Shown one piece after another: positions 7,021-58,160 of a DNA stretch of 64,000 bases. The notes below the pieces were generated by a model, which saw only the letters and a program-made list of their open reading frames with translations, was not told where the DNA came from and did no database searches. The translations under genes and the position numbers were made by a program. Each line of letters begins with the position of its first letter. Positions within the stretch are counted from its first letter, which is position 1. This DNA comes from an uncultured Bacteroidota bacterium (lineage in GTDB: Bacteria > Bacteroidota > Ignavibacteria > UBA10030 > UBA6906), in assembly GCA_963809695.1 (NCBI GenBank), contig CAWEKI010000001.1:21018-85017 (forward strand), read 5' to 3'.

Positions 7021-7110
7021 ATGATGCAAGCTCTGTTCCCATGAATCGGGAGCCGGCGTGAATGTTCATTGAGGGATTTTCACCTTCATCCACAATGCGG
7101 GACTGCACCC

Positions 7111-7986: not shown

Positions 7987-8060
7987 CGGGTGCAACGCCC
8001 CCTGACACCGGCACTTACAGCCCAGATAGTTTTTCAGCACTTCCAGAGAAAGACCCGCGC

Positions 8061-9200: not shown

Positions 9201-9265
9201 GTCCGCTTTCATAGATTGGCTACTGCCGTTTCAAAAAACCATATGATCATTAGGAGGAGGTCCTG

Positions 9266-9805: not shown

Positions 9806-9854
9806 GCTGCAAATTAGTCCTCAGGGTAAAACGAATTCACATAAAGGAGTACGT

Positions 9855-10556
9855 ATGAAACGTGTTGCAACTGCATGTCTCGTCTCCCTCTTATTGCTAC
9901 TCGTTGCCAGCCAGGGAGCCGATTCGCAAATGCGGTTCGGCGTCGGACTCCGGACCGGAATGAACTTTGCCAGCATGTCCTTTGACCCCGAGTTGTTTGC
10001 GGGCAACACTCAGATCACACAGGGGGGGCGGACGTTGTTCATGGTAGGTGCAGCGGGAGAGATGTTCTTTACCAGTATGTTTGGGGCGGAGATAGACTTC
10101 CTGTACGTGGGAAAAGGAGCGGAGTTCACGCGAAGCACGGACCAGGCAAGCCAGACGATCAAACTGAGCGAGCTTGAGATCCCCATTCTCTTCAAAGCGA
10201 AATTCCTCACCGGGAAAATTCATCCCTACGGATTTGTCGGTCCAAGCATCGGAATCGTGACCAGCGCGAGTGCCGTGACCGAGATCCCGGGACAGCCTGT
10301 TCAAGATATCGACCTGAAGAGCAACCCGGGCGGAACTCAGGTCAGCGGCATGGACTTCTCGCTCCAATTCGGCGGCGGCGCTGAGTACCTTGTGACGCGC
10401 GAGATCGGTCTCTTCCTGGACCTCCGCTATGTCCTTGGCTTGAGCAACATCTATGACACCTCCCAGCAACAACAGATCCCCGGGCAGCAGACCGTTACGC
10501 AAACGTGGCACACGAGAGGGTTCATGATCCAGCTCGGGGGGATGTACCACATTTAG
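9855..10556 (+). CDS. small outer-membrane beta-barrel protein (paralog 2)
   Basis: Signal peptide; amphipathic beta strands; ends ...QLGGMYHI. Terminator hairpin follows. Confidence 0.5.
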   Translation: MKRVATACLVSLLLLLVASQGADSQMRFGVGLRTGMNFASMSFDPELFAGNTQITQGGRTLFMVGAAGEMFFTSMFGAEIDFLYVGKGAEFTRSTDQASQTIKLSELEIPILFKAKFLTGKIHPYGFVGPSIGIVTSASAVTEIPGQPVQDIDLKSNPGGTQVSGMDFSLQFGGGAEYLVTREIGLFLDLRYVLGLSNIYDTSQQQQIPGQQTVTQTWHTRGFMIQLGGMYHI

Positions 10557-27176: not shown

Positions 27177-27420
27177 TGCCAGGTGCAAGACAAACACAAA
27201 GAACACGGAGGAAAGCGTATTAGTTTGGGAACAGCAAAAACAAAAGCAGAAACACGACATGTAGCTCCTGCGTCTGTTTATAAACTCTCTTTTCTAACTA
27301 CTCTTCCCCTCTGTGGCTCTTTGAGTCCTTTGGGTTCTCTCTGTTCGTCATGTACCAGAGAGTTCTCATTTTATCTTGCTTTTTTCTCCAAAATTTTCGA
27401 AATTCATACGCTCTTTCAAT

Positions 27421-27503
27421 GCGGAAGTGGCGAAATTGGCAGACGCACCATCTTGAGGGGGTGGCGCCCAAAAGGCATGCGGGTTCAAGTCCCGCCTTCC
27501 GCA
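27421..27503 (+). tRNA. tRNA-Leu (anticodon GAG), type II with long variable arm
   Basis: Acceptor GCGGAAG/CTTCCGC, anticodon stem CCATC/GGTGG with loop TTGAGGG, long variable arm, T-arm GCGGG-TTCAAGT-CCCGC. Confidence 0.85.
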
Positions 27504-27850
27504 CGAAAACGACCTCTCTAACCCCTTGTCAATCAAGGGGTTATTTGTTTTTCTCCCAGAAGGCGGGACTCTCTATGCGCCCCTGGTCCTGCCTCCGCAC
27601 GTGTCGGATCATCCAATCATTTCTCCGTCTAGGTCCTTTTCGTTCCCGCCATTCCTTCGTTGGGTCTTTGCTCCATGGGTGAGGGAAGGGAGACATCCGG
27701 TACGGCTCAACCAGTATGCTCGAGTGATTGCAGTAACGCCGGATCCCTGTCCACCTGTTACATGGCAGCCTCGGGCGACATGTTCATCGGCAGCGGGAGG
27801 TGATCGCTCGTAGGGCATCCTTGGAAAAGGTTCTGCACCGATACGAGCGA
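27481..27850 (+). repeat. tRNA-Leu 3'-end + terminator + ~350-bp flank module (copy A1)
   Basis: Diverged copies at 61684-62060 (A2), 46310-46410 (partial A3) and 62232-62300 (tRNA-3'/terminator-like). Shared motifs: ttcaagtcccgccttccgca, aaccccttgtcaatcaaggggttatttgttt, ctgtccacctgttacatgg, gctcgtagggcatcc. Confidence 0.6.
27520..27552 (+). terminator. rho-independent terminator after tRNA-Leu
   Basis: aacccctt-gtcaatc-aaggggtt hairpin followed by atttgttttt. Confidence 0.6.
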
Positions 27851-33643: not shown

Positions 33644-33663
33644 TCTGAAGATCAAGGAAGCTC

Positions 33664-33702
33664 ATGTAAGGCATGGCACTTGGTCATGCCTTACATTTTG
33701 TT
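33664..33702 (+). terminator. rho-independent terminator after the GRE gene
   Basis: Perfect 12-bp inverted repeat atgtaaggcatg ... catgccttacat followed by tttgtt. Confidence 0.6.
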
Positions 33703-33704
33703 CC

Positions 33705-34045
33705 GTCAACACCCTTTCCTGTCCCGCCCAAGCGGGAGCCTTAGTTTCGGGGTTGACTAAGAAGCAGCAGTAGTCATTTCGGGAGAGCGAAGCGACGAAG
33801 CAGTCTCTTATCGGCTCTGGGGTTGCTTCGCCCCGCCAAGGCGGGGCTCGCAGTGACAGGAAAGCAGTCAGATTGTGCGCCAGAGGTTCATCCCTTGGGG
33901 GCTTCGGGCCCACAGGTCCGGTCCTTCGGACCGAGACTCTCGGTCTGAAAGGCCGGAGCAGGCTCGCAATGACAGTTGGAGGACTTTTGGGTCACTCCCG
34001 AAGAGTGTGATTTGAGCGCAACCGAACAGAAGTTAATCAAGGAGG
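33705..34045 (+). promoter_or_regulatory. repeat- and hairpin-rich structured leader upstream of the PFK-like gene (possible cis-regulatory RNA or clustered palindromic elements)
   Basis: Multiple GC-rich hairpins (tcccgc-ccaa-gcggga; ccccgcc-aa-ggcgggg; ggtcc-ttc-ggacc; ccgaga-c-tctcgg) and a twice-repeated ggctcgcaRtgacag motif (33845, 33961). Confidence 0.35.
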
Positions 34046-34051
34046 CACATT

Positions 34052-35224
34052 ATGAGTACGGAAATTGGTCATGGTAGTTTTCTCAGGCGCATTGCTATCA
34101 ATGTTGGCGCCGGCTACGTTCCTGGCATAAATGCCGTTATTACGGGTGCTGCGATGGCGGCCGGTAAAATGGGATGGGAGATGGTCGGTGTTTGCGATGG
34201 GTTTGAAGGTTTACTTCACCCCGAAAAATATCCTGAGGGTGGACTGGTTACACTCAGCCCTCGGCTGATAGAAAATCTTGATCCTTCTGCAGGGGGTATA
34301 CTTGGCCAATCGGTCCGGGTCGATCCGTTTCATGTCCGCACGGTAAACAAAGACGACATGGTGGAAGAAGTGGACATGTCCGATGATCTCTTGAAAAGGC
34401 TGAAGGAAGAAAAGATTGACGGATTGATTTCAGTGGTTGGCGGACTTGGGCTGAGTATTCTCTACAAGCTCCACCGCAAAGGGCTCAATGCGGTGTGCAT
34501 CCCAAGGTCGATCGATAATGATATCGCCTGTACTTCGGTGTCATTCGGATTCAACAGCGCCCTCACCTTCACCATCGAAATGCTGGACCGTGCCCGTCAG
34601 GCGGCCCAGTCTGCACGCAAAATTGCAGTAGTCGAGGTACAGGGAGAGCAGGCTGGATGGATTGCACTCCAGGCAGGTATAGCAGCTTGTGCTGATGTCA
34701 TCATGATCCCCGAGATCCCTGTTGATCTCAAGAATGTGGCACGGAGATTAAAAGATAAGATGTCACCCAGAAGGCCGTACGGGCTTGTTGTGGTGGCCCA
34801 GGGAGCGAAACTTATCAGTCAAACTAAGAAGGAAGGGGCCACATCCTCCCTAAAAGCTACTCTGTCGCCACTGGCTACCGGTGATTCCAGCAGTGAGCAC
34901 GTCATTCAGAGTTCTGGCCAGGCAGCAGAGACTGTGGCAAGAGAACTTCAGCTGCTGATAGCCGAGGAAACCTATCCGCTCGTCATCGGTCCCTGGGTCA
35001 GGGGTGGTACCCCAACTGCTGTCGACCGCCAACTGGGGATGGCGTACGGAGCCGGGGCATTGCAGGCGCTGAAAGCGGGGAAGAATGGAGTAATGGTTGC
35101 TTTTGTTCCTCCTGAAATCAGGTTCGTGCCGCTGGCAGAAGCAATCAACAAAGTCAGAACGGTGTCTGCGGACAGCGAATTCCTGAAGATTGCTCATTCA
35201 CTTGGCATTTATTGTGGAAAATAA
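34052..35224 (+). CDS. phosphofructokinase-fold protein with degenerate catalytic motifs (PFK-like)
   Basis: Colinear with ATP-PFK (PGINAVITGAAMAA ~ PGMNAAIRGVVRAA; IPRSIDNDI ~ LPGTIDNDI; KIAVVEVQG ~ RISVVEVMG). GGDGS is replaced by GGLGL. The MGR fructose-6-P arginine is replaced by QGE. The N-terminal SGGD is replaced by VGAG. Confidence 0.7.
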   Translation: MSTEIGHGSFLRRIAINVGAGYVPGINAVITGAAMAAGKMGWEMVGVCDGFEGLLHPEKYPEGGLVTLSPRLIENLDPSAGGILGQSVRVDPFHVRTVNKDDMVEEVDMSDDLLKRLKEEKIDGLISVVGGLGLSILYKLHRKGLNAVCIPRSIDNDIACTSVSFGFNSALTFTIEMLDRARQAAQSARKIAVVEVQGEQAGWIALQAGIAACADVIMIPEIPVDLKNVARRLKDKMSPRRPYGLVVVAQGAKLISQTKKEGATSSLKATLSPLATGDSSSEHVIQSSGQAAETVARELQLLIAEETYPLVIGPWVRGGTPTAVDRQLGMAYGAGALQALKAGKNGVMVAFVPPEIRFVPLAEAINKVRTVSADSEFLKIAHSLGIYCGK

Positions 35225-35236
35225 GGAGGAAGAATT

Positions 35237-36211
35237 GTGAACAATCAAACAATAAACCCAAGCGATATGACAGGGACGGTGCTGAATATCCAACGATACT
35301 GCAGCCACGACGGTCCGGGCATCCGCACTACCGTCTTCCTGAAGGGTTGCTCGCTGCGCTGCAAATGGTGCGGCAATCCTGAAAGCATCCGGATAAAACC
35401 GGAAATGTCCTACGATTCCAGGAAATGTACGGGCAAGAAGGCATGTGGAGTTTGCCTGAAGTCGCCCTTCCCGGAAGGCGCCTTCTATGTTGTGGAGGGC
35501 GACGATGACAAAGTAAAAGTCAACTGGCATCTGGCCATGGATTGCGACGAGACATTGACATCGCTCTGCCCGACAGGAGCGCTCGAAATGTTTGGCAAAA
35601 AGATGACAGTAAAAGAGGTGTTGGACGAGGTGGAGAAGGATGCTTCCTTTTACCGAAATACAGGGGGTGGAATGACATTGAGTGGCGGTGAGATCATGCT
35701 GCAGCCTGATTTCAGCGCAGGTTTGCTGAAGGAAGCGCACGATCGTGGCTTCAATACGGCCATAGAAACAGCGTGCAACGCTCCATGGCCTTTCCTGGAG
35801 AAGGTGCTGCCCCACGTTGATACGATGCTGCATGACCACAAGCTGACCATCCCGGAGAGGCACAAGAAATGGACCGGCGTGGACAACAAGCGTATACTCG
35901 AGAACTTCAAGAAAGCTTACGAGACGTTTCCCAACATTGACTTCATCGCCCGCACGCCGCTGATTCCCGGCATCAATGCCGATGAGGAACATATACGAGC
36001 AGTGCTGGCGTTCATTCGCCCTCACAAGAACGTGATTGACTATGAGCTGTTGCCGTATCACCGCTTCGGCCTGGGCAAGTACGAATACCTGGGCAAGGTG
36101 TATGAACTGGATGATTACAAAACGCCGTCTGATGAATTGGTTAAACATTTACAGGCCATCATCGACGAGGCCTTCGGCCGAAGTGCCCAGACAGCCGCGG
36201 TCGTGAAATAG
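35237..36211 (+). CDS. glycyl-radical enzyme activating enzyme (radical SAM, PflA family with extra ferredoxin-like Cys clusters)
   Basis: CSHDGPGIRTTVFLKGCSLRCKWCGNPES (PFL-AE signature with CxxxCxxC). Additional CxxCxxC clusters. GTG start preceded by an aaggagga SD-like sequence. Confidence 0.85.
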   Translation: MNNQTINPSDMTGTVLNIQRYCSHDGPGIRTTVFLKGCSLRCKWCGNPESIRIKPEMSYDSRKCTGKKACGVCLKSPFPEGAFYVVEGDDDKVKVNWHLAMDCDETLTSLCPTGALEMFGKKMTVKEVLDEVEKDASFYRNTGGGMTLSGGEIMLQPDFSAGLLKEAHDRGFNTAIETACNAPWPFLEKVLPHVDTMLHDHKLTIPERHKKWTGVDNKRILENFKKAYETFPNIDFIARTPLIPGINADEEHIRAVLAFIRPHKNVIDYELLPYHRFGLGKYEYLGKVYELDDYKTPSDELVKHLQAIIDEAFGRSAQTAAVVK

Positions 36212-37449: not shown

Positions 37450-38202
37450 ATGAACGCCAGGTATAACTTTCATTTTATATGGTTAGTACTCTGTGTTCTA
37501 GTGAGTTCTGCAAGCAACAGCTATGCCCAAGATTCATCATTCGAATTATGGCCCGAAACGGATATTTGGTACAGGATAAACCCGTCCTGGCGGCTGTCAG
37601 CTTTTATTCCTATCACAAAATACCACGAAAGCCAAAACCGGGACTTGAATATATATCTGCAGGCCGATTATGCATGGGGCCGGACAACATTCTCCCTGTA
37701 CAGGAGGTTACGAGATGAAGAGAGAGCGGCGCAGATGAGATCTTGGTTACTGCGCTGGGGTTTCATGGAAGGATGGAGCCTGGGTGATAACCCAAGCAAC
37801 TATACGGAAGATATGCTCTTCGCCGAAATCCACAAAAGAGATCCTCTCATAGGAGGCATATTACTCTCGCATCGTATTCGTGTCGACCTCCGGTGGGTTG
37901 GCGAAGATCCGGACCTTTCTTATCGGTTCCGTTACCGTGTCATGCTTGAAAAGGAATATACCTCCGGCAATAGTTCGATTGTTCCTTATGTGAACATAGA
38001 ACCTTTCTGGGACTCGCGCTATGCAACTTTCAGTCGTGTGCGCATTATCGGAGGCGCTACCTTTTCCTGGGGACCACGCTGGGCGTTTGAAGGCAACCTG
38101 ACATATCAGTACGATTCACATTATGATACAAGCAATCTCTATGCGCTCAACCTGATCGTGCACTTGTTTTTTGAAGCAGAGAATGACGATGATACAAATT
38201 AA
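37450..38202 (+). CDS. hypothetical secreted protein (signal peptide; Trp/Tyr-rich)
   Basis: N-terminal signal peptide MNARYNFHFIWLVLCVLVSSASNSYAQ; no catalytic motif recognised. Confidence 0.4.
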   Translation: MNARYNFHFIWLVLCVLVSSASNSYAQDSSFELWPETDIWYRINPSWRLSAFIPITKYHESQNRDLNIYLQADYAWGRTTFSLYRRLRDEERAAQMRSWLLRWGFMEGWSLGDNPSNYTEDMLFAEIHKRDPLIGGILLSHRIRVDLRWVGEDPDLSYRFRYRVMLEKEYTSGNSSIVPYVNIEPFWDSRYATFSRVRIIGGATFSWGPRWAFEGNLTYQYDSHYDTSNLYALNLIVHLFFEAENDDDTN

Positions 38203-42881: not shown

Positions 42882-44567
42882 ATGAAAGTCATCATCGTTG
42901 GTGGAGTAGCCGGGGGTGCGTCGTGTGCGGCGCGTCTGCGCAGACTGGAGGAGAAGGCTGAAATCGTCCTCGTGGAACGCGGACCGTATGTCTCATACGC
43001 GAACTGCGGCCTTCCGTACCATGTCGGGGGTTCGATCGAGCAAGAGGGGAGCCTCCTGGTGGCGACGGAGGAGATGTTCCGGGCAGTGTTCGCGGTTGAT
43101 TGCCGAACGAACTGCGAGGTGGTCGGGATCTCGGCAAAGGCGAAAACAGTGGACCTGAAGAACACCCAAACGGGTACAGTCACGACAGAGAAATATGACA
43201 AGCTTGTGCTTTCCCCCGGTGCGGCGCCGATCCGCCCGCCGCTTCCCGGTATCGACCTTCCGGGCGTGTTCTCTGTGAGAACCGTGCCTGACGCACGTGA
43301 GATCCGCCAGTGGCTTGACCGGGACTCGGACCGTTCCGTAGGGAATCCCTTCACAGGCGTCGACACGGTGTCGAAGCCAAAACATGCGGTAGTGGTCGGA
43401 GGAGGGTTCATTGGTCTGGAGATGGTCGAAAACTTCGTGGACCGCGGGCTTGGTGTCACGCTCTTGGAGAAGCTCGATCAGGTCATGCCGCCGCTCGATC
43501 CCGAAATGGCGCGCCTGGTGGAGCGCTACCTGGTCAGGCACGGCGTTCAGCTTGTGCTCAATGATGGTGTTGCCGGATTCCGTAAGCCGGCTGCCGGGGG
43601 GCTGGAAGTCATGACGGAATCAGGCAAGGCCTTCCCGGCGGACATCGTGATCCTGGCCATCGGTGTGCGTCCGGAAACCGCGCTGGCGAAGATGGCTGGC
43701 ATCGAGATCGGGAAGCGGGGCGGGATTCGGGTCGATGAGCAAATGCGTACGTCCGATCCGGATATCTTTGCCGTCGGCGATGCGGTGGAAGTCAAGGACT
43801 TTGTGACAGGACAGTGGACGCTCATCCCGCTCGCCGGGCCGGCAAATCGCCAAGGGCGGATTGTCGCTGACGTGATCGCCGGCCGCACATCCCGATTCCG
43901 GGGGACGCAGGGAACCTCGATCTGCAAGCTCTTCGATGCGGCGATCGCTCAGACCGGCGTCAGCGAGAAAATGCTGAAGCAGCTGGGTGACGCCGATTAC
44001 GAGAAGATCTATCTCTACCCGAACTCGCACGCGGGGTACTACCCGGGTGCCAAGCTGCTCCCCATGAAGGTCATATTCCGGAAGTCGAACGGTCGGCTCC
44101 TCGGGGCGCAAGTGCTTGGCGAGGATGGGGTCGCCAAACGGATCGATTCCTTTGCCATGGCGATCCAGATGGGGTGCACGATCTACGACCTGGAGGAATC
44201 GGAGTTGAGTTACGCGCCGCCGTTCGGCAGTGCCAAGGACCCGGTGAACTTCGCGGGCATGGTCGCGGCCGATATTCTCCGGGGCGACATGCCGATCACC
44301 CACTGGGAGTCGTTGAATGGCGCTTTCCTGCTTGATGTACGGAATCCGCAGGAAGTGGACGCTGAGGCGGTTCCTGGCGCGGTCAACATCCCGCTGCCTC
44401 AACTCCGCGCCCGCTTGGGTGACCTTCCCCGCGATCGGGAAATCAACATTATTTGTCGATCGGCGGTGCGAGCCTATTTTGCGACGCGGATTCTCCTGCA
44501 AAGTGGGTTCAAGGCAAAGAATATTTCCGGCGGCATGCTGGCACGGTCGCATTGTACCGGGGATTGA
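42882..44567 (+). CDS. CoA-disulfide reductase family flavoprotein with C-terminal rhodanese domain (CoADR-RHD / NADH-dependent persulfide reductase-like), copy 1
   Basis: FAD motif VIIVGGVAGGAS; redox Cys in SYANCGLPYHVGG; NAD(P) motif VVVGGGFIGLE; C-terminal rhodanese with active Cys (ICRSAVRAY). Confidence 0.8.
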   Translation: MKVIIVGGVAGGASCAARLRRLEEKAEIVLVERGPYVSYANCGLPYHVGGSIEQEGSLLVATEEMFRAVFAVDCRTNCEVVGISAKAKTVDLKNTQTGTVTTEKYDKLVLSPGAAPIRPPLPGIDLPGVFSVRTVPDAREIRQWLDRDSDRSVGNPFTGVDTVSKPKHAVVVGGGFIGLEMVENFVDRGLGVTLLEKLDQVMPPLDPEMARLVERYLVRHGVQLVLNDGVAGFRKPAAGGLEVMTESGKAFPADIVILAIGVRPETALAKMAGIEIGKRGGIRVDEQMRTSDPDIFAVGDAVEVKDFVTGQWTLIPLAGPANRQGRIVADVIAGRTSRFRGTQGTSICKLFDAAIAQTGVSEKMLKQLGDADYEKIYLYPNSHAGYYPGAKLLPMKVIFRKSNGRLLGAQVLGEDGVAKRIDSFAMAIQMGCTIYDLEESELSYAPPFGSAKDPVNFAGMVAADILRGDMPITHWESLNGAFLLDVRNPQEVDAEAVPGAVNIPLPQLRARLGDLPRDREINIICRSAVRAYFATRILLQSGFKAKNISGGMLARSHCTGD

Positions 44568-44630: not shown

Positions 44631-45569
44631 GTGATGCCCGAACCCGAGGTCCCGCAGGAAACACCCGACTTCTCACTGGTCCTGGGTGGTCCACTGTTTC
44701 AGCTGTTCCGACGGACACATCTGTCCGGAGCTGGATTGGAGCTGATGAAGCGGCGGATCGTGTTCATCGCTCTTTTCGCGTGGCTGCCGTTGCTGGTGTT
44801 GGCCTTACTGAGTGGGCGCGCTTTGGGTGGCGGAGTCAAAATCCCGTTCTTGTTCGACATCGAGACACATGCTCGATTCCTGATCGCACTGCCGGTATTA
44901 ATTGCAGCGGAAGTGATCGTCCACCGTCATATCCGACCGGTGGTTCAACAGTTCATGGCGCGGCGCATGATCGTCGCGGAGCAAGTTCCGAAATTTCATG
45001 CGGACATCAAGTCGGCAATGCGAGTGCGCAACTCGCCTGTGGTGGAATTGGCATTGCTTGTTTTCGTTTACACGCTAGGACATTGGACTTGGCGGGACGG
45101 GGTTGCAATGGAACAGGCAAGTTGGTATGCAATGCCGGACGGGAAGAGCCTCAATCTCACCTATGCCGGTTACTGGTTGGCCTTCGTCAGCGTACCGCTG
45201 TTTCAGTTTATCCTGTTGCGCTGGTATTTGCGGCTTTTGACCTGGTCCTGGCTCTTGTGGCGTATCTCGAAATTGAGCCTGCGGCTCACCCCTACTCACC
45301 CGGATCGGGCCGGCGGGCTGGGCTTTCTGGGTGATAGTGCCCACGCCTTCGCGCCGATCCTCTTTGCCCAGGGCGCACTTCTTGCAGGGTTGATCGCCAG
45401 CCGGATCTGCTACGACGGTCAGGCCTTGATGACATTCAAGGGAGAGGCCTTAGGGTTCGTGATCGTTTTTGTTCTCTTCATCCTGGGCCCACTCACGGTC
45501 TTTTCCGGCCATCTCGCACGAGCAAAGCGAAAGGGCTTGCGCGAGTACGGAATGCTCGCCAGCCGCTAG
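44631..45569 (+). CDS. hypothetical polytopic membrane protein, apparently frameshifted near 45560 (continues as the 45569-45823 frame)
   Basis: Several hydrophobic helices. The reading frame ends ...EYGMLASR* while the adjacent frame continues ...VQEFDDKWVQGG... with more TM-like sequence. This suggests a frameshift (pseudogene or sequencing error). Confidence 0.4.
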   Translation: MMPEPEVPQETPDFSLVLGGPLFQLFRRTHLSGAGLELMKRRIVFIALFAWLPLLVLALLSGRALGGGVKIPFLFDIETHARFLIALPVLIAAEVIVHRHIRPVVQQFMARRMIVAEQVPKFHADIKSAMRVRNSPVVELALLVFVYTLGHWTWRDGVAMEQASWYAMPDGKSLNLTYAGYWLAFVSVPLFQFILLRWYLRLLTWSWLLWRISKLSLRLTPTHPDRAGGLGFLGDSAHAFAPILFAQGALLAGLIASRICYDGQALMTFKGEALGFVIVFVLFILGPLTVFSGHLARAKRKGLREYGMLASR

Positions 45570-49062: not shown

Positions 49063-49410
49063 ATGTTCCTCACCATCGTACGCATTTTTCCTCCTACTGC
49101 TGAACTAGAGGCGATCCGGGCTTACCTGTCGGGTTTCCTGGGACCAACCGGCGTTCAACCAGGTTGCCTGGGTTGCACGTTGGCTGAGGAGTCTGACCCG
49201 GAGGCGCTCGTCTATACGGAAACGTGGCAGACGGAGGAAGAATTCTTGTGTCGACTGCAATCAGGGAAATTCGCGAAGATACTTGAGATTTCCGAGATGT
49301 CCGTTGGGAGACCCGATGTCTGGATTTGCGAAGTCATCAATCAACAAGGGTTGGAGTTTGTCGATAAACTCAGAAAGGATCGCCCGGAGGAGACGCAATC
49401 AACGACATGA
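49063..49410 (+). CDS. ABM-domain protein (paralog of 30781-31170)
   Basis: ...VQPGCLGCTLAEESDPEALVYTETWQTEEEFLCRLQSGKF... matches the ABM consensus. Confidence 0.6.
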   Translation: MFLTIVRIFPPTAELEAIRAYLSGFLGPTGVQPGCLGCTLAEESDPEALVYTETWQTEEEFLCRLQSGKFAKILEISEMSVGRPDVWICEVINQQGLEFVDKLRKDRPEETQSTT

Positions 49411-50141
49411 GAGAGAAGACAATATTGACGATGTCACTGGCGGCGGGAATGTTGCTGCATGCCATGCCGGTGATTGCTCAGGAACAATCAAACGCTTGGA
49501 GGTTCCGGGTGACCCCTTACTTTGTGGGTGCGGCCATGAACGGCGACCTCACCATCCATGGCCGTACTGCGACGGTGGATGTCGGCTTTGACAAGATCCT
49601 GGAGAACCTCAAGTTTGCGGCTATGCTGCAACTTCAGGCACAGAAAGGCCGATGGAGCATCGGGTTGGATGGGATTTATATGGGGCTTGGTGCCACGGCA
49701 AGTAAGCCAGAGGCAGATGTCACCATGGATCAGTGGATGGTAGAGCTTTCGGGAGCCTATCAACTTGCACCCGGGATCGAGATGCTGGCTGGGGTGCGCT
49801 ACAATGCCTTGTCCAGCTCGATCACGTTTGAAAATCCCCGCCTCGCTGAGAAAAGTGGGAATGTGGATTGGTTCGATCCGGTAGTGGGCACGCGCCTGAC
49901 GGCTCGCCTGAGCACTCAGTGGACGCTGCGTGGCCGGGCAGATATCGGCGGATTTAATGTCGGGTCGTACATGACGTGGCAGGCTGCGGCCTATGTCGAT
50001 TTTCGGGCCAGTGATCTCATTGCTATCGTCGGGGGCTATCGTGCGTTGAGCAATAACTTTGAGACCGGCAGTGGAGACGAACTGTTTCGATATGACGTGA
50101 CCGTGTCCGGTCCAACGCTGGGAGTGTCGTTTGCCTTTTAA
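49407..50141 (+). CDS. outer-membrane beta-barrel protein
   Basis: Signal peptide; amphipathic strands; C-terminal ...LGVSFAF (terminal Phe). Confidence 0.5.
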   Translation: MREKTILTMSLAAGMLLHAMPVIAQEQSNAWRFRVTPYFVGAAMNGDLTIHGRTATVDVGFDKILENLKFAAMLQLQAQKGRWSIGLDGIYMGLGATASKPEADVTMDQWMVELSGAYQLAPGIEMLAGVRYNALSSSITFENPRLAEKSGNVDWFDPVVGTRLTARLSTQWTLRGRADIGGFNVGSYMTWQAAAYVDFRASDLIAIVGGYRALSNNFETGSGDELFRYDVTVSGPTLGVSFAF

Positions 50142-50186
50142 TAATCGAATTCAGCAATCGTGATCATCATACCAAAGGAGGCCCAC

Positions 50187-50717
50187 ATGATACGTAATCT
50201 CACCGCAATTCTTGCAGCTCTTGCTATCTGTCCGCTTCTGGCCTTCGCTCAGGGAGAACCAGGGTTCAGCAAGATGTCTCTCGGCGCAAACTTTGAGGTC
50301 TCTCTTCCCATGGGGGATTTCTCCGACTGGGCTGGCACCGGCTATGGCGGCAATGTCCGGTATCAGTATGGAACCGACTCGCGCACCGTCTTTACCGCCA
50401 CGGCGGGCTACCTTGCCTGGACGACAAAGGAGATGGCCGCCAATACCTCCTCCCAGCCCAAGGCCTTCAACATTTTTCTCGGGGGCAAATACTACCTGGC
50501 GCCGGGTTTCTACGGCAGCCTGGAAGGGGGACTGTATTTCATGACGTTCACCTACACCGGCAATGTGATCGGTGCAAAGGGGAATCAGACCTATTTCATG
50601 TTGCCCATCGGCCTGGGATTCCAGAAATCCGGTTTCGAGCTCGGCGTCCGCTATATGCTGTACTACCATGGCTTCAACTCATTCTCGTTCACTGCGGGGT
50701 ACAACTTCGCCCTGTAA
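50187..50717 (+). CDS. small outer-membrane beta-barrel protein (parent copy of the pseudogene at 57832-58160)
   Basis: SD aaggagg then ATG 50187; signal peptide MIRNLTAILAALAICPLLAFAQ; KAFNIFLGGKYY motif shared with the fragment at 58060. Confidence 0.5.
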   Translation: MIRNLTAILAALAICPLLAFAQGEPGFSKMSLGANFEVSLPMGDFSDWAGTGYGGNVRYQYGTDSRTVFTATAGYLAWTTKEMAANTSSQPKAFNIFLGGKYYLAPGFYGSLEGGLYFMTFTYTGNVIGAKGNQTYFMLPIGLGFQKSGFELGVRYMLYYHGFNSFSFTAGYNFAL

Positions 50718-50792: not shown

Positions 50793-52478
50793 ATGAAAGT
50801 CATTATAGTTGGTGGAGTGGCAGGCGGAGCCTCCTGTGCGGCGCGTCTGCGCAGATTGGATGAGAAGGCTGAAATCGTGCTCGTGGAACGCGGACCGTAT
50901 GTCTCATACGCGAATTGCGGCCTTCCGTACCATGTCGGGGGTTCGATAGAACAGGAATCCAGCCTCCTGGTGGCGACGGAACAGATGTTCCGTGCAGTAT
51001 TCGCGATCGATTGCAGGACAAGCTGCGAAGTAATCGGCATTTCAGCCAAAGAGAAAACAGTCAAGCTCAAGAATCACGCAAATGGTGAAGTGACCACTGA
51101 GAAATATGACAAACTGGTGCTTTCCCCCGGGGCGGCGCCGATCCGTCCGCCGCTTCCGGGGATTGATCTCCCGGGAATATTTTCTGTAAGAACAGTACCT
51201 GATGCGAGACATATGCGCGAATGGTTAGACCGTGATATATTAAATACCGGAATGAATGAATACAGCGGCGTTAACACAATTGCAAAACCCCTCAATGCAG
51301 TTGTCGTTGGAGGTGGATTCATAGGTCTGGAGATGGTTGAAAACTTAGTGCATCGCGGACTTAATGTAATATTGGTTGAAAAGTTAGATCAGGTTATGCC
51401 GCCGCTCGATCCTGAAATGGCTCTTGTAGTAAAACGTTATATGGAAAGACACGGCGTTAAAGTTGAACTTAATGATGGCGTTGCAGGATTTCGTAAATCT
51501 GATGATGGAATGATTGAAGTACGTACGGAATCAGGAAAAGTTTACCCTGCAGAAATTGTTATCCTTGCAATCGGTGTTAAGCCCGAAACAGAATTAGCGA
51601 AGATGGCAGGAATCGAACTCGGTAAAAGAGGAGGATTTAAAGTTGATGATCAGATGCGGACTTCAAACGCAGATATCTTTGCTGTTGGTGATGCAGTTGA
51701 AGTAAAAGATTTCGTTACCGGAGAAATGACTCTTATTCCCCTTGCAGGACCGGCAAACCGGCAAGGAAGAATTGTCGCTGATGTTCTTTGCGGTCGTAAT
51801 TCGCGCTATCGTGGTACACAGGGGACCTCAATCTGCAAAATATTTGATGCGGCAATTTCACAAACAGGTGTGAGTGAAAAAACACTTACAAGACTTGGTG
51901 TGACCGACTATGAAAAGATTTACACATATCCGAACTCGCACGCGGGATATTATCCCGGCGCAAAAATACTTGTTATAAAAACTCTGTTCCGCAAATCCGA
52001 CGGGAAAGTGCTTGGTGCCCAGGTGCTTGGTGAAGAGGGTGTTCCCAAAAGAATTGACTCTTTTGCAATGGCCATTCAGATGGGCTGCACTATTTACGAT
52101 CTGGAAGAATCAGAACTCTGTTACGCCCCGCCATTTGGTAGTGCCAAAGACCCGGTTAACTTTGCAGGCATGGTTGCAGGAGATATTCTGCGGGACGATA
52201 TGCCGATCATCCACTGGGATACGCTTGGTAACGGGTTCATTTTAGATGTGCGTAATCCGCAAGAACTTGAAGTAGAGTCTGTTCCCGGCGCTGTGAATAT
52301 CCCTTTGCCGCAACTTCGGTCCCGTCTGGGAGAACTTCCTCGTGATCGAGAAATCCATGTCCTTTGCCGTTCAGCTCAGCGAGCCTATTATGCCACTCGC
52401 ATACTTCTGCAAAATGGATTCACAGCAAAGAATATTTCCGGCGGAATGCTTGCGCGTTCACATCGTGCGGTGAGTTAG
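50793..52478 (+). CDS. CoADR-RHD flavoprotein, copy 2 (mosaic: high-GC 5' ~390 bp nearly identical to copy 1, remainder low-GC)
   Basis: Same motifs as copy 1. First ~390 nt are near-identical to 42882-43270 at nucleotide level. From ~51180 codon usage shifts to A/T-rich (tta, aaa, gat). Confidence 0.8.
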   Translation: MKVIIVGGVAGGASCAARLRRLDEKAEIVLVERGPYVSYANCGLPYHVGGSIEQESSLLVATEQMFRAVFAIDCRTSCEVIGISAKEKTVKLKNHANGEVTTEKYDKLVLSPGAAPIRPPLPGIDLPGIFSVRTVPDARHMREWLDRDILNTGMNEYSGVNTIAKPLNAVVVGGGFIGLEMVENLVHRGLNVILVEKLDQVMPPLDPEMALVVKRYMERHGVKVELNDGVAGFRKSDDGMIEVRTESGKVYPAEIVILAIGVKPETELAKMAGIELGKRGGFKVDDQMRTSNADIFAVGDAVEVKDFVTGEMTLIPLAGPANRQGRIVADVLCGRNSRYRGTQGTSICKIFDAAISQTGVSEKTLTRLGVTDYEKIYTYPNSHAGYYPGAKILVIKTLFRKSDGKVLGAQVLGEEGVPKRIDSFAMAIQMGCTIYDLEESELCYAPPFGSAKDPVNFAGMVAGDILRDDMPIIHWDTLGNGFILDVRNPQELEVESVPGAVNIPLPQLRSRLGELPRDREIHVLCRSAQRAYYATRILLQNGFTAKNISGGMLARSHRAVS

Positions 52479-52492
52479 AAAGGAGATCTTTC

Positions 52493-53371
52493 ATGAACGA
52501 AATCTTGGAGTTTTGTCAGTCTATATTTAATCCACTGGTAATTGTATTTACTGTTTCAAACCTCTTAAGCATGGGCCTTCAGGTTAACCTGGGCAAGATG
52601 TTCAAAAAAATTGGAGATCTGAAGTTCCTGGGACTTACGTTCGGATACGGCTGGGTGGTAGGCCCCGCTGTCGCTTATCTGATCACCTTGTTAATTCCAC
52701 TGGATTCAACATATGTAATCGTGTTGTTCATCGGTAGTCTGGCCCCGTGTGCACCATTTCTCCCACCGCTTCTCCCCAAAGCGCATGGAGACGTTGTCTT
52801 CGCAGGAGCCTTCATACCGGTTGCGGCGATCGGCACATCCGTGCTAATGCCACTATTTGCACCGTTCCTGGCAAAGGGCATAGAATTGAGCGTAATGTCG
52901 CTCCTGAAACCGCTCTTTATGACGGTGCTCGTACCTTTGCTGATTGGCGCTTTAATCAAGACTTATGCTAGTAAAGTGGTCGACAAAATCTTCCAGCCTG
53001 TAAAGAAACTGGCGGGCTTGGCTACGTTGTTGACAATTGTTTTCTGTCTTTTGCTCTATTACAAACAGATGTGGGCTACTGCCGGCAGCTTTGCAATGCT
53101 TTCGCTGACCATTTTTATGGTTGTGATGGCACTGCTCTCCTTTTATTTCGGATTCGGCCTTAAGCGGGGTGAGAGAATAGTCCTGTCACTGGGAATGGGC
53201 ACACGGAACATAGCCGCTGTCTTGATAGGAGTTCTTGCTATTCCGGATGTAAAACCAAATATGGTGGCGATGGTTATCATTTGGACGTTGTGGTCTTTCA
53301 TCCTCAGCGTAGTTGTTGCCCCGCTTATGGGTAAAAAGGATGGCAAGGCAGGCGAGGAAGTTAAAGCATGA
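52493..53371 (+). CDS. bile acid:sodium symporter (BASS/SBF)-like transporter
   Basis: ~290 aa polytopic membrane protein with BASS-like helix pattern. ATG 52493 sits after the upstream stop; the ORF-track start 52364 overlaps the CoADR gene. Low-GC. Confidence 0.5.
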   Translation: MNEILEFCQSIFNPLVIVFTVSNLLSMGLQVNLGKMFKKIGDLKFLGLTFGYGWVVGPAVAYLITLLIPLDSTYVIVLFIGSLAPCAPFLPPLLPKAHGDVVFAGAFIPVAAIGTSVLMPLFAPFLAKGIELSVMSLLKPLFMTVLVPLLIGALIKTYASKVVDKIFQPVKKLAGLATLLTIVFCLLLYYKQMWATAGSFAMLSLTIFMVVMALLSFYFGFGLKRGERIVLSLGMGTRNIAAVLIGVLAIPDVKPNMVAMVIIWTLWSFILSVVVAPLMGKKDGKAGEEVKA

Positions 53372-53456
53372 GCTCACCCGGTAAACAATGAAGACCATGA
53401 AAAGCTTATTAATGATTCGCCACGAAGGTAGAAGCGTATGAGGGCACAGGATATTT

Positions 53457-53770
53457 TTGGCATTGCTGCAATCCTCTACTGCGCCTATGTTACCCATTTT
53501 GATCAGGAAAGCCATGGCAGATATGGACGTCTCCGCCGCTATGATGCCCTTAGCGGTGGTAGGGACGGTGGTGTTGATGCCACTGATCGCACCCATGCTG
53601 ATTTCCAGGGTATCGGTCAGCAGTTTCGCGCTCGCCAAACAACTTGTTCTCACGGTGCTGCTGCCGCTTGTAGTCGGCGTTGTTATTAAGGTATATGCGA
53701 TCAAATTGGCAGATAAAATTTTGCCCTATTTCAAAAGACTCGCAGGCCTTACTTGTATTCAGGTGCAACT
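53457..53770 (+). pseudogene. duplicated fragment of the BASS-like gene (C-terminal half), fused in frame to the next gene
   Basis: ...AMMPLAVVGTVVLMPLIAPML...LLPLVVGVVIKVYAIKLADKILPYFKRLAGL parallels residues ~150-230 of the 52493 protein (...FIPVAAIGTSVLMPLFAPFLA...LVPLLIGALIKTYASKVVDKIFQPVKKLAGL). Confidence 0.45.
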
Positions 53771-53774
53771 AACA

Positions 53775-54581
53775 ATGAAACTAATCATCCTGTTGATCAG
53801 TATTTTCATTACCGTTTCTGCATTAGCACAGGAGGAACAAAAACCGGCATCAAATGATCCAGCAGAAATTGCCAAAGCACTGGCAAATCCTATTGGAGCA
53901 CTAATTAGTGTGCCCTTTCAGAATAATATGGACATAGGAATCGGAGAAACCAATGGTTCGCGAAACACACTTAACTTTCAACCAATCATTCCGTTTAGCC
54001 TAAGTGAAAAATTCAGTCTGATTACAAGATATATTCTACCTGTAATAGCACAATATGACATTACAGGCGAAGGCACTCAGCAAACTGGACTGGCTGATGC
54101 ACTGGTGAGTGGATGGATTTCTAATGCTGTAGTAAAAGATGGATTTGTATGGGGATTGGGCTCTGCATTTCTAATTCCCACTGCAACCAATGATATGTTA
54201 GGCACAACAAAGTTTGGTATTGGCCCAACTGCGATAGCTCTAAAACAAGCGAATGGCTGGACATATGGCGCGTTGATAAATCAAGTCTGGTCAGTTGCCG
54301 GCGATGAAAACAGAGCGGATGTTAACCAGATGTATTTGCAGCCTTTTGTAACTTATAACTGGAAAAGTGGAACGGGATTAACCGTGAACGCGGAATTAAC
54401 TCAAAACTGGCAGGCTAGTAGTACAACAGCTTTTATCAATATAGTGGCAGGGGGATTATTAAAGTTCGGTGAACAATTAATTCAATTCCAAGTTGGTCCA
54501 CGGCTACAGGTAGCCGCCCCTGAAGGAGGCAGATCTGATTTTGGTGTTAGGACTGCAGTGATATTTGTTTTTCCGAAGTAA
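53775..54581 (+). CDS. secreted / outer-membrane protein of unknown function
   Basis: Signal peptide MKLIILLISIFITVSALAQE; beta-rich; ends ...VIFVFPK. Lowest-GC gene in the window. Confidence 0.4.
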   Translation: MKLIILLISIFITVSALAQEEQKPASNDPAEIAKALANPIGALISVPFQNNMDIGIGETNGSRNTLNFQPIIPFSLSEKFSLITRYILPVIAQYDITGEGTQQTGLADALVSGWISNAVVKDGFVWGLGSAFLIPTATNDMLGTTKFGIGPTAIALKQANGWTYGALINQVWSVAGDENRADVNQMYLQPFVTYNWKSGTGLTVNAELTQNWQASSTTAFINIVAGGLLKFGEQLIQFQVGPRLQVAAPEGGRSDFGVRTAVIFVFPK

Positions 54582-54603
54582 TGAATATATATCTTAAACA
54601 CCT

Positions 54604-56406
54604 ATGAAAATGAATTCAATAGATGAAGCAGAAGGCAAAACGGGAAAGGCATCCCTGATGGGAGTGCTTAGGGGTTATTTGCCCATCCTTGATTGGGGAG
54701 CAAAATACACCAGCAAGACATTTACAAACGACATGATCGTTGCGCTGATTGTAACGATGATGTTGATCCCGCAGTCGCTGGCCTATGCGTTGCTTGCGGG
54801 GCTGCCGGCAGAGGTCGGACTGTATGCCTCGATGGCGCCGCTCGTGCTCTATGCGATCTTCGGCACATCCCGCACGCTCGCGGTCGGTCCCGTGGCGGTG
54901 GCCAGCCTCATGACCGCGGCAGCAGCCGGACAGCTCGCCTCCCAGGGAACACCGGAATATCTGGGGGCTGCCATCGCGCTCGCTATGGTCTCAGGTTTGT
55001 TGCTGCTCGCAATGGGGTTTCTGAAGCTTGGGTTTCTTGCAAATTTCCTCAGCCACCCCGTCATCTCGGGATTCATTACAGCTTCCGGTATTCAGATCGC
55101 TGCAGGTCAGCTCGGACCCGTTCTCGGGATACATGTTGAAGGAGAAAGTTTTCTGGATATTGTTATTTCGTTATGGCACACTATTACTCACATCCATCTC
55201 GCAACCGCAGCCATCGGTATCGGCTCTCTCATCTTTCTCTTCTGGGTTCGCAGCGGACTGAAGCCGCTTCTGGTCCACTTCGGACTGGGTGCGCGTGTCT
55301 CCGACATACTGGTTAAAGTTGGTCCTGTTGTGGCCATCATTGCAGCTATTCTCATAGTGTGGACCTTTGGTCTGTCTGATAAAGGGGTAAAAATTGTCGG
55401 AACGGTGCCCGGTGGTTTACCAAAACTTGCCATGCCGCCGATGGATATGGCACTCTGGATGAAGATCCTCGTGCCGGCGCTTCTGATCTCCATAATAGGC
55501 TATGTTGAGTCAATCTCGGTTGCTCTTACTCTTGCTGCCAAACGTCGTCATCGCGTCGACCCCGACCAGGAGTTGATCGCGCTTGGCATGTCCAACGTCG
55601 GTGCGGCCCTGTCGGGCGGATTTCCGGTGACGGGCGGCTTCGCTCGCTCGGTGGTAAACTTTGAAGCTGGCGCTGAGACGCCCGCTGCCGGGGCATTCAC
55701 GGCGGTCGGCATCGCTCTCACCACGATGTTTCTTACTCCGCTTCTGTTCTTTCTGCCGAACGCAACGCTCGCCGCCACCATTATCGTTGCGGTCCTGTCG
55801 CTGGTGAATCTCAGCGCGCTCAAGCTCACGTGGCACTATTCGTGGACCGATGGCGCGGCGATGGCCGCCACTATCCTCCTCACCTTGGTCGAGGGCGTGG
55901 AAGCGGGGCTGTTGGCGGGCGTGGGTCTCGCCATCTTCCTCCATCTTTACCAAACGTCGAAGCCGCATGTGGCGGTCGTGGGCCAGATCCCGGGCACCAT
56001 GAATTTCCGCAACGTGGCCCGGCATACGGTGGTGACTGATCCCGAGTTTCTATCGCTCCGGGTGGACGCCAGTCTCTATTTCCCGAACGCACGCTTCATC
56101 GAGGACTACATCAACGGGGCGGTTGCGGCCAACCCGACTGTCCGCCACGTCATCCTTGAATGCGCGGCGGTGAATGCGATTGACGCCTCGGCGCTGGAAA
56201 GCCTCGAGGCGATTAACCACCGGCTCAAGGATGGCGGAATTACCCTCCACCTCTCCGAGGTAAAGGGCCCAATCATGGACCGCCTGAAGCGGTCGCATTT
56301 CCTGGAAGAGCTGACCGGCAAAGTCCACCTTACCCAATATGATGCCGTTTCCAGTATCAAACCAGATTTGGCGTCGCATACGTTGGAAGCAAAGAGACCT
56401 TCATGA
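54604..56406 (+). CDS. SulP-family anion transporter with C-terminal STAS domain
   Basis: 600 aa; SulP TM core; C-terminal STAS region (...VILECAAVNAIDASALESLEAINHRLKDGGITLHLSEVKGP...). Confidence 0.85.
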   Translation: MKMNSIDEAEGKTGKASLMGVLRGYLPILDWGAKYTSKTFTNDMIVALIVTMMLIPQSLAYALLAGLPAEVGLYASMAPLVLYAIFGTSRTLAVGPVAVASLMTAAAAGQLASQGTPEYLGAAIALAMVSGLLLLAMGFLKLGFLANFLSHPVISGFITASGIQIAAGQLGPVLGIHVEGESFLDIVISLWHTITHIHLATAAIGIGSLIFLFWVRSGLKPLLVHFGLGARVSDILVKVGPVVAIIAAILIVWTFGLSDKGVKIVGTVPGGLPKLAMPPMDMALWMKILVPALLISIIGYVESISVALTLAAKRRHRVDPDQELIALGMSNVGAALSGGFPVTGGFARSVVNFEAGAETPAAGAFTAVGIALTTMFLTPLLFFLPNATLAATIIVAVLSLVNLSALKLTWHYSWTDGAAMAATILLTLVEGVEAGLLAGVGLAIFLHLYQTSKPHVAVVGQIPGTMNFRNVARHTVVTDPEFLSLRVDASLYFPNARFIEDYINGAVAANPTVRHVILECAAVNAIDASALESLEAINHRLKDGGITLHLSEVKGPIMDRLKRSHFLEELTGKVHLTQYDAVSSIKPDLASHTLEAKRPS

Positions 56407-57831: not shown

Positions 57832-58160
57832 TTGTGTCTGTTGTTCATTCCCGTGATTACACTGACCCAGGGGGAGCCTGGGTGGGGCAAGATGTCCCTC
57901 GGCACGAGCGTCGAGCTGAATCTTCCTGTCGGAGATTTCAGCCCTATCGCAGGTACCGGGTACGGTGGCGACGTTCGATGCCGTATGGAAGCGATTCACG
58001 CACGGCCTTTGCGGCCACGGCAGAGTACCTTGTCTGGGGGAAGAAGGATTGGACGACCAATCCGTTGGTTCAGCCAAAGGCTTTCAACATTTTCCTCGGA
58101 GGGAAGTACTATTCAGATCGAGTGAATCCAAAGTCCAGGGAAATATCGTACAACCGGAGG
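57832..58160 (+). pseudogene. frameshifted, truncated copy of the OMP gene at 50187-50717
   Basis: Two overlapping frames each carry part of the OMP sequence (GEPGWGKMSLGTSVELNLPVGDFSPIAGTGYGGDVR / SRTAFAATAEYLVWGKKDWTTNPLVQPKAFNIFLGGKYY), then it terminates early. Confidence 0.55.

Follow-up and report, generated by a model that had tools for sequence, protein, structure and literature searches.

We analyzed a 64,000-nucleotide (nt) stretch of DNA from an uncultured Bacteroidota bacterium of the class Ignavibacteria (GenBank assembly GCA_963809695.1, contig CAWEKI010000001.1, positions 21,018 to 85,017 of the forward strand), hereafter called the window. It carries two CoADR-RHD genes, and the second of them (copy 2) is followed by an SBF/BASS-family transporter gene, the remnant of a second SBF gene (SBF2), a gene for a 268-amino-acid (aa) secreted protein (unk268) and a SulP gene. 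A patch of low guanine-cytosine (GC) content at ~51180–54760 begins inside copy 2 and ends inside the SulP gene, and its sequence probably came from lower-GC bacteria. The features of the locus are listed below; "native" and "donor" tell which relatives a segment resembles, and GC3 is the GC content at third codon positions.

42882–44567, + strand: CoADR-RHD copy 1, of native composition throughout (GC 0.61, GC3 0.73), the native comparator
49407–50717, + strand: genes for a 244-aa secreted protein and a 185-aa outer-membrane protein (OMP) of the beta-barrel type, native left flank (GC3 0.64 and 0.71)
50793–51145, + strand: 5′ part of CoADR-RHD copy 2, native type, with the redox-active Cys42 motif SYANCGLPY
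51141–51157, + strand: putative left crossover zone in CoADR-RHD copy 2, codons about 117–122 (...PIRPPLPG...)
51158–52478, + strand: 3′ part of CoADR-RHD copy 2, donor type A, including the rhodanese domain with Cys525
52493–53371, + strand: SBF/BASS-family transporter gene, 292 aa, donor type B (PF01758, 51.4 bits; cut-off 24.3)
53438–53769, + strand: SBF2, a pseudogene remnant (Pfam SBF match of 25.9 bits at 53457–53774)
53775–54581, + strand: unk268, a secreted protein with an N-terminal signal peptide, donor type A, family unassigned
54604–54760, + strand: 5′ end of the SulP gene (codons 1–52), donor type C, like low-GC Bacteroidales
54760–54790, + strand: putative right crossover zone in SulP, at the motif VTMMLIPQSLAYALLAGLP of the first transmembrane segment (TM1)
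54791–56406, + strand: remaining SulP-STAS gene, native type, 94% aa identity to P0123
56587–57774, + strand: NMT1/SsuA-like substrate-binding protein gene, native right flank (GC3 0.76; family matches weak)

Results

Base composition and codon usage shift inside two genes

The GC content was 55.8% for the whole window, 45.0% for 51180–54760 and 56.4% for the remainder. The sharp drop at this place, which had been proposed in a sequence-only reading of the window, was thus confirmed, but the background of 60–65% GC assumed there was too high, the computed value being ~56%. The lowest-GC stretch of 3581 nt in the whole window started at 51151. When GC was calculated over 300-nt intervals, the values inside the patch were 0.38 to 0.51; on the left side they fell from 0.53–0.55 to 0.41–0.45 between 51050 and 51350, and on the right side they rose from 0.45 to 0.60 across 54500–54950. 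A codon-usage index resembling the codon adaptation index (CAI-like) was built from 34 other open reading frames (ORFs) of the window (mean 0.758, standard deviation 0.046; GC3 0.675 ± 0.066), with the following results for the segments of the locus:

CoADR-RHD copy 2, codons 1–123: GC3 0.59, CAI-like z −0.6
CoADR-RHD copy 2, codons 124–561: GC3 0.35, CAI-like z −3.5
SBF gene: GC3 0.54, CAI-like z −3.1
SBF2 remnant: GC3 0.58, CAI-like z −3.8
unk268: GC 0.42, GC3 0.33, CAI-like z −5.4
SulP, codons 1–52: GC 0.44, GC3 0.50, CAI-like z −1.9
SulP, from codon 53: GC3 0.67, CAI-like z −0.3

The z values of the patch genes were therefore −3.1 to −5.4, and the per-segment GC3 and z values indicate a strong shift of composition and codon usage that begins and finishes inside two genes. 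That both boundaries fall within ORFs, and that unk268 is the lowest-GC gene of the window, had also been claimed; the second was found to be so, and for the first, composition and the independent switches of nearest relative described below agree at each end.

The nearest relative switches within CoADR-RHD copy 2

Copy 1 and copy 2 (50793–52478) have 561 codons each. Both matched the Pfam families Pyr_redox_2, Pyr_redox_dim and Rhodanese, both have Cys42 and Cys525, and both aligned with the PDB entries 3ICR, 3NTA and 8A56 at E values of 1e-138 to 1e-162 (3ICR: 3e-162). By their domains and cysteines, the two products are predicted to be CoADR-RHD proteins of the CoA-persulfide reductase/Npsr type. 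The TIGR03385 scores of 451–464 bits were under the equivalog cut-off of 579, which might be expected if its 439-position model represents CoADR enzymes without the rhodanese domain.

The two copies aligned without a gap over all 561 codons, with 73.5% nt and 80% aa identity overall. Identity along the two genes was not uniform, and fell from 88% nt in codons 1–75 and 83% in codons 1–125 to 70% beyond. The first ~390 nt of copy 2 had been described as nearly identical to copy 1; this part is indeed closer to copy 1 than the rest of the gene, but only at 83–88% nt identity, and a 90-nt stretch (50853–50942) of about 96% identity was the only part that high. The same stretch also encodes the conserved active-site motif. 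At conserved amino acids, the two copies used the same codon at a frequency of 0.62–0.70 in the 5′ part and 0.38 in the rest. In maximum chi-square breakpoint tests on codon identity and on the GC3 of copy 2, the observed value was reached in 0 of 5000 permutations for both measures, and the GC3 breakpoint was at 51174.

Comparison with low-GC loci located the switch more narrowly. For codons 1–125 of copy 2, the nt and third-position identities were 0.83 and 0.64 to copy 1, and 0.75 and 0.41 to the low-GC locus L001. From codon 126 to the end, they were 0.70 and 0.39 to copy 1, and 0.84 and 0.63 to L001. Informative sites were then counted with copy 1 as the native proxy and the loci L001, L162, L163, and L038 as donor proxies. 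Native-specific and donor-specific sites stood at 38:20 up to 51152 and at 37:250 beyond this position (Fisher p = 8e-16). The last of the native-specific sites was at 51140, followed by an unbroken donor-specific run from 51146–51158. At the join, L162 matched the window exactly over ~20 nt (…CCGATCCGTCCGCCGCTTCC…), roughly at 51143–51162 as read by eye from the dot alignment. The 3′ part of copy 2 was 84% identical in nt to L001, L162, and L163, 82% to L038, which is an Ignavibacteriaceae metagenome-assembled genome (MAG), and 70% to copy 1. Protein homologs of copy 2 reached up to 87–91% aa identity, and the named ones were from Bacteroidota (Draconibacterium, Lentimicrobium, Bacteroidales).

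The first 123 residues of copy 2 were 90% identical to copy 1 and 88–90% identical to the orthologs P0125–P0130 of other native-lineage genomes, and copy 1 itself was 86–89% identical to P0125–P0130. Judged from these identities, the 5′ part of copy 2 looks like a third native-lineage allele and not like a recent copy of copy 1; the native lineage that the two share would account for their resemblance. Sites unique to copy 2 made up 6.4% of its 5′ part and 5.4% of its 3′ part (p = 0.52), a comparison that does not tell a resident remnant from a conversion product.

Rearranged or doubled CoADR-RHD genes were also seen elsewhere. The low-GC locus L164 has two CoADR-RHD paralogs a few kb apart (3493–5208 and 8300–9982; 571 and 560 aa), indicating that the two-copy state recurs. 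L162 has at 2583–2716 a 45-codon remnant of a CoADR 5′ end, which stops just past SYANCGLP. This remnant is found 7 kb upstream of the full-length gene, with which it shares 85% nt identity, and it marks another rearrangement endpoint in the conserved CoADR 5′ end.

The nearest relative switches again within the SulP gene

The 600-aa product of 54604–56406 matched PF00916 (327 bits), PF01740 (STAS, 54.9 bits) and TIGR00815 (424 bits, cut-off 380), and is predicted to be a SulP anion transporter with a STAS domain. Its closest relative was P0123 from the JGI metagenome 3300075153, with 93% aa identity overall. This identity was 69% in residues 21–52 and 94% in residues 53–598 (Fisher p = 2.8e-5), and in residues 21–52 the low-GC Bacteroidales MAGs L002 and L034 reached 94% and 91% identity. 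At the nt level, 54694–54753 had identities of 0.84–0.85 to seven low-GC loci and 0.70–0.73 to eight high-GC loci, and over 54814–54903 the better match flipped to the high-GC loci. Between the two intervals lies the TM1 motif, whose DNA is nearly invariant across all lineages. The nearest relative therefore switches at about 54760–54790, and the right boundary is near the start of the SulP gene, where it had been placed before.

When informative nt sites at the right edge were compared between the low-GC and high-GC groups of loci, the difference was not significant (p = 0.31); SulP residues 53–330 have a deeper, older affinity to low-GC Bacteroidales. The aa comparison with the closest relative P0123 was used in place of this group comparison. 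No second SulP gene was found in the window.

A second, weaker GC3 dip was seen in SulP codons 161–320 (55084–55563), with values of 0.38–0.62 compared with 0.72–0.88 further downstream. This part was still 92–98% identical in aa to P0123. Residues 53–330 of SulP were 85–87% identical to low-GC Bacteroidales MAGs and 77–80% to high-GC Acidobacteriota MAGs, and the relation was reversed for residues 331–598. The dip may be an older recombination layer common to the window and P0123.

Gene content and gene order of the patch recur in low-GC loci

The order CoADR-SBF-SBF2-unknown-SulP, as in the patch, is carried by L001, L163, and L038 (39–41% GC). L162 has the same gene set up to the unknown gene, after which the sequence changes abruptly, and L164 and L165 (42–45% GC) have CoADR-SBF-SulP only. 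The nt identity to the low-GC loci was 81–93% in the patch and 66–75% in the flanking genes.

The patch was found to contain three donor types. Type A comprises the CoADR 3′ part, the SBF2 remnant and unk268. The CoADR 3′ part was 82–84% identical in nt to the type A loci overall, and up to 91% in 150-nt windows. Type B is the SBF gene at 52493–53371, a member of the PF01758 family as expected from its earlier description as BASS-like. In 150-nt windows it was 78–89% identical to L164/L165 and 53–63% identical to the type A loci L001/L163; its best protein matches were 85–86% identical, the named ones being from Bacteroidia and Lentimicrobium. Type C is the SulP 5′ end, with L002 and L034 as its closest matches. 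The switches between the types inside the patch are at gene borders (about 52480, 53370 and 54590), and either the donor was already mosaic or several replacements took place. Probable donors are lineages of the FCB group, for example those of the best-matching Ignavibacteriaceae and Bacteroidales MAGs.

The sequence-only reading took the SBF2 remnant for a duplicated BASS fragment fused in frame to the secreted protein gene, and neither part of this held. The remnant was 49% identical in aa to the neighboring SBF gene, but 77% identical over 87 residues to the intact 284-aa SBF2 of L163, and is what is left, after decay, of a distinct second SBF gene of the donor. It keeps its start codon (ATG at 53438) and about 13–16 codons, followed by the equivalent of residues 81–167, and has two internal deletions, of ~202 nt after 53475 and of ~340 nt after 53752. 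Its nt identity to the type A loci was 72–85% (83–85% to L001/L162). As for the fusion, the frame is merely open: the ORF 53457–54581 runs on from the SBF2 remnant with no stop in between, and unk268 has its own ATG at 53775 and its own signal peptide. The gene after copy 1 (44631–45569) was considered as a BASS homolog, which would have turned the two loci into duplicated operons, and was rejected, as it had no Pfam match and no BLASTP similarity to SBF.

For unk268, the nt identity was 92% to L162 (over 558 nt), 87% to L038 and 85% to L001/L163, and homologs lie between SBF2 and SulP in L001, L163, and L038. It had no Pfam match even at E < 10, no NCBIfam match and no PDB sequence match, and its single-sequence AlphaFold2 model was unusable (predicted local distance difference test score, 37). 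From the signal peptide and a strand-rich prediction, one might guess at an outer-membrane beta-barrel. In L162, GC jumps from ~0.40 to 0.60–0.72 at ~15001, in the middle of the unk268 homolog, and the similarity to the window stops there (window 54340), which points to a chimeric assembly or else to a further boundary, of recombination or of insertion. Frameshifts also split many genes of the L162 contig.

The flanks are native, and close relatives lack the additional genes

The genes flanking the patch have native composition, and their order recurs in many other genomes. In many loci, a homolog of the 244-aa gene immediately precedes CoADR. The OMP_b-brl match of the 185-aa protein had E = 1.5e-4, below the Pfam cut-off. 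A paralog of this gene lies downstream of the NMT1-like gene (50250–50494 versus 57868–58111, 71% nt identity over 245 nt). An NMT1 gene follows SulP in the closest relative and belongs to the same neighborhood in many other loci.

The closest relatives were three contigs of JGI 3300075153 (CoADR P0125, P0128, and P0130), whose CoADR was 86–88% identical in aa to copy 1. Two of the three contigs have the order sigma-54 activator-ABM-GH63-ADH-CoADR-SBF-SulP, one of them continuing with NMT1, and the third has ABM-CoADR-SBF-SulP. SBF2 and unk268 were not present in any of the three contigs, in which SBF follows CoADR and SulP follows SBF with no gene in between. Close relatives thus have a recipient-type locus that lacks the replacement (SulP 93% for one of them, CoADR 86–88% aa identity). 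The SBF of these relatives was not among the 120 listed matches to the window SBF, the weakest of which was 73% identical. The evidence from the relatives is at the protein level; the best match of a metagenome scan, which did not turn up these contigs, was 83% identical, and copy 1 is the only native proxy at synonymous sites.

Synteny with the low-GC loci extends beyond the cluster to the sigma-54 activator, GH63, ADH, the block of glycyl-radical enzyme (GRE), PFK and activase, NMT1, and CorA. From this wider synteny, donor and recipient probably belong to one broad clade with very different GC, and extended pairing between them is plausible.

No tRNA, integrase, transposase, or recombinase gene was found in the patch, all of whose ORFs are cluster genes. 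The tRNAs of the window are at 22241 and 27421 only, no Rfam element was linked to the patch, and no significant repeats flank it. Because tRNA, integrase, transposase, and flanking repeats are all missing at the patch, it is not a classical genomic island.

Other features of the window and of related loci

The lowest native-side composition in the window was found in a DUF2490 gene at 37450–38202 (GC 0.47, GC3 0.50, CAI-like 0.652), just upstream of the GH63 gene. It was 74% identical in nt to the DUF2490 gene of the low-GC locus L162, and may be another small foreign insert. A low-GC ORF of 112 codons at 27183–27521 overlaps tRNA-Leu (27421–27504) and is probably not a gene.

The GRE-PFK-like-activase block (window 31223–36211) was 72–80% identical in nt to the low-GC loci, in which it spans 4464–9119 (L001), 5276–9933 (L162) and 523–5113 (L038). 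The GRE gene has a GC of 0.50–0.58 in L001/L162, against a background of 0.40, and the block in the window is slightly GC-poor (0.52–0.53), which suggests that an exchange ran the other way or that both drew on a third source. The GRE (31223–33643) matched no characterized subfamily above cut-off; the best NCBIfam matches were hydroxyproline dehydratase and sulfopropanediol dehydratase, and the activase (35237–36211) matched best the sulfopropanediol dehydratase activase HpsH (360 bits, cut-off 430). As a lead only, the neighborhood of GRE, SsuA-like protein, CoADR-RHD, SBF, and SulP may handle organosulfonates.

In the loci L002–L045, the genes NMT1-244 aa-CoADR-SBF-SulP occur in varying order in MAGs labeled Acidobacteriota, Bacteroidales, Flavobacteriaceae, and Ignavibacteriaceae. 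SulP was 71–82% identical in aa across those MAGs and a Methylococcus MAG, and CoADR was 80–91% identical across phyla. Such cross-phylum identities point to a wide horizontal spread of the cluster.

Discussion

Probable replacement of the cluster core

According to the above results, we consider it likely, with a probability of roughly 0.7, that the core of the cluster was replaced by a homologous stretch of ~3.6 kb from lower-GC bacteria. Homologous replacement from a lower-GC donor had been suggested before, and the switches of nearest relative, the gene order of the donor-type loci, the close relatives without the extra genes and the lack of mobile-element marks all speak for it. An abrupt switch of nearest relative in a collinear gene, as expected of a mosaic gene, was found in both CoADR-RHD copy 2 and SulP. 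Near-identity of ~20–35 nt exists at both joins between genes that otherwise diverge by 25–30% in nt between native and donor type. Both hybrid genes are in frame, full length (561 and 600 aa) and free of gaps, and their catalytic residues are kept.

The resident cluster would have had the order (sigma-54 activator)-ABM-244 aa-OMP-CoADR-RHD-SBF-SulP-NMT1. Incoming low-GC DNA would have paired with this homologous cluster, and the crossovers would have been resolved in the two islands of near-identity, at about codons 117–122 of CoADR-RHD and at the TM1 motif of SulP. Such an exchange would be expected to leave a CoADR-RHD hybrid of full length, whose Cys42 is native and whose rhodanese Cys525 is from the donor, and likewise a SulP hybrid of full length, to which the donor contributed residues 1 to about 52. 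The SBF allele would be foreign, and two genes would be new in comparison with the closest relatives, namely a second SBF (later decayed by two deletions) and the secreted protein unk268. We infer RecA-type recombination as the mechanism and a direction from low GC to high GC, and the number of events may have been one or more.

Several observations weigh against this account. The divergence of 25–30% in nt exceeds the efficient RecA range of Bacillus subtilis, in which the efficiency of transformation declines log-linearly as divergence rises to 15%, and homology-facilitated illegitimate recombination takes over beyond (PMC6382021). At such divergence, the event would have to rest on identity islands of 20–30 nt or on homology-facilitated illegitimate recombination. 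The best donor proxies are only 84–92% identical in nt, and the closest relatives were compared as proteins only. In addition, the contig was assembled from a metagenome and seen once, and both the contig and its proteins are singletons. Finally, the first 360 nt of copy 2 form a patchwork, with one stretch that is 96% identical to copy 1 and another, 50943–51092, that is like neither copy 1 nor the donors. Considering that transformation often leaves clustered, discontinuous donor tracts (PMC13344027), this patchiness would fit such tracts.

Alternative explanations

A second way to obtain the hybrid gene would be acquisition of a whole donor block, reaching from upstream of CoADR into SulP, followed by conversion of the 5′ third of CoADR from copy 1. 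In its favor, no known sequence is closer than copy 1 to the first 375 nt of copy 2 (83% nt; 80% for the next best locus), the 90-nt core is about 96% identical, and the patchy copy-1-like and donor-like sites in the 5′ part resemble clustered short conversion tracts (compare PMC13344027). However, the 5′ part as a whole is only 83–88% identical in nt and 90% in aa to copy 1, and orthologs elsewhere are as close (88–90% aa), so that any conversion would be old. Moreover, 11% of the sites in 50943–51092 match neither copy 1 nor any donor proxy, and native composition and synteny extend to the genes upstream of copy 2. On the right side, the edge is within SulP, of which the window has no second gene; that side would require a homologous crossover in any case, and a single double crossover accounts for both edges. 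We therefore regard this sequence of events as rather unlikely. Gene conversion between the paralogs had been put forward in the sequence-only reading too; what stands of it is that 50853–50942 alone could be a short conversion tract, and for the remainder, at 83–88% nt identity, conversion is weakly supported and not needed. A Campbell-type single crossover was considered as the origin of the two CoADR copies and rejected, since it predicts a chimeric first copy with donor genes in between, neither of which was seen.

The patch might also be an assembly artefact, in which the contig path ran into a low-GC co-occurring organism within the conserved 5′ part of CoADR and back within the conserved TM1 region of SulP. 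The proteins are singletons on one metagenome contig, both joins are at the places of highest conservation, which are the most prone to graph or overlap errors, and the related ENA contig L162, with its jump from 0.40 to 0.65 GC in the homolog of the unknown gene, could contain a chimeric join of this kind from a similar data set. An artefact would nevertheless require two in-register switches only 3.6 kb apart, and the exact identity between native and donor sequence at the joins is only about 20–35 nt, which is shorter than the final k-mers expected of short-read assemblers and far shorter than long-read overlaps. The patch also matches no single sampled organism, as it has three donor types and two SBF2 deletions of its own, and both hybrid genes are intact. 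On balance, an artefact seems quite improbable. Drift of a native region to low GC, by mutation bias, relaxed selection or selection on expression and with no transfer at all, would draw on the unusual composition that membrane and secreted proteins can have and on the other mild GC dips of the window (37450–38202 and 55084–55563). Yet the low-GC stretch is 81–93% identical in nt to low-GC genomes and only 70% identical to the native paralog, the two extra genes occur only in low-GC genomes, and the change takes place within about 20 nt inside genes. In our view, the change of nearest relative at each of the two edges already refutes drift, which can hardly be credited.

A possible recombination hot spot

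A broader reading is that recombination between very divergent lineages keeps recurring in the cluster from CoADR-RHD to SulP, which would be a standing hot spot for it; we put this forward tentatively, as possible but doubtful. Conserved gene ends would serve as homology arms, and lineages at least 15 GC points and 25–30% in sequence apart would repeatedly swap gene-sized cassettes (SBF alleles, a second SBF and an outer-membrane protein), leaving chimeric enzymes each time. Hints in this direction are the three donor types in the patch with switches at gene borders, the GC3 dip in SulP codons 161–320 that is common to P0123 at the protein level, and the 45-codon CoADR remnant of L162 together with the two CoADR copies in both L164 and the window. 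A further hint is that CoADR and SulP are 77–91% identical in aa across MAGs labeled Acidobacteriota, Bacteroidota, Ignavibacteriota, Nitrospirota, and Methylococcales.

Comparison with known systems

Mosaic genes produced by interspecies homologous recombination are known from the pneumococcal pbp genes (PMC8321556) and from aph(3′)-IIa (PMC4437187). As in these, the ancestry of the two genes studied here switches in frame at homologous positions inside the gene, the crossovers lie in conserved stretches, the hybrid proteins are full length, and mobile-element machinery is missing. Unlike in these, the parents are 25–30% in nt and ~15 GC points apart, compared with the usual 5–20%, whole extra genes were brought in, no selective agent is known, and donor and recipient are uncultured and known from assemblies alone.

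Replacement of cassettes between conserved flanks has been described for the effector/immunity genes of the type VI secretion system (T6SS) of Vibrio cholerae (PMC5361080) and for capsule serotype switching (PMC8321556). The locus shares with them conserved end genes as homology arms, a swapped variable interior and remnants left behind, here the SBF2 pseudogene. It differs in that the arms are parts of the functional genes CoADR-RHD and SulP, so that chimeric proteins result, and in that the cluster concerns sulfur redox and anion transport, and not antagonism or a surface antigen. Divergent DNA, short perfect-match anchors and patchy ends are also features of homology-facilitated illegitimate recombination and of transformation mosaics (PMC6382021, PMC13344027). 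Unlike in the former, both ends here are homologous and in register, and nothing illegitimate is visible.

Both CoADR-RHD copies have the domain order of the known CoADR-RHD/CoA-persulfide reductase/Npsr proteins (PMC9405070, PMC7969121), with an FAD/NAD disulfide reductase, a dimerization domain and a C-terminal rhodanese, and both of their cysteines. Copy 2 would differ from these as a natural chimera, in which one cysteine is encoded by native DNA and the other by apparent donor DNA. To our knowledge, the SBF, SulP, and SsuA-like neighbors are not those of the CstR-regulated Firmicutes operons.

Implications

The event is of an ordinary, known kind, namely recombination between distant relatives, and leaves the general picture of bacterial genome evolution unchanged. 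It is unusual in three respects only: the distance between the partners in composition and sequence, the use of functional genes as homology arms, and the two origins of the cysteines in CoADR-RHD. It would represent a natural homologous exchange between genomes of very different GC, with crossover zones mapped to a few tens of nt, and two chimeric products of full length are predicted from it, one an anion transporter and the other a flavoprotein persulfide/disulfide reductase. Such a locus would be misread by island finders that rely on composition, and likewise by phylogenies of whole genes. The chimeric CoADR-RHD would be a ready-made domain-swap experiment. Furthermore, conserved coding sequence may act as a landing pad for foreign cassettes at divergences at which recombination is usually deemed negligible.

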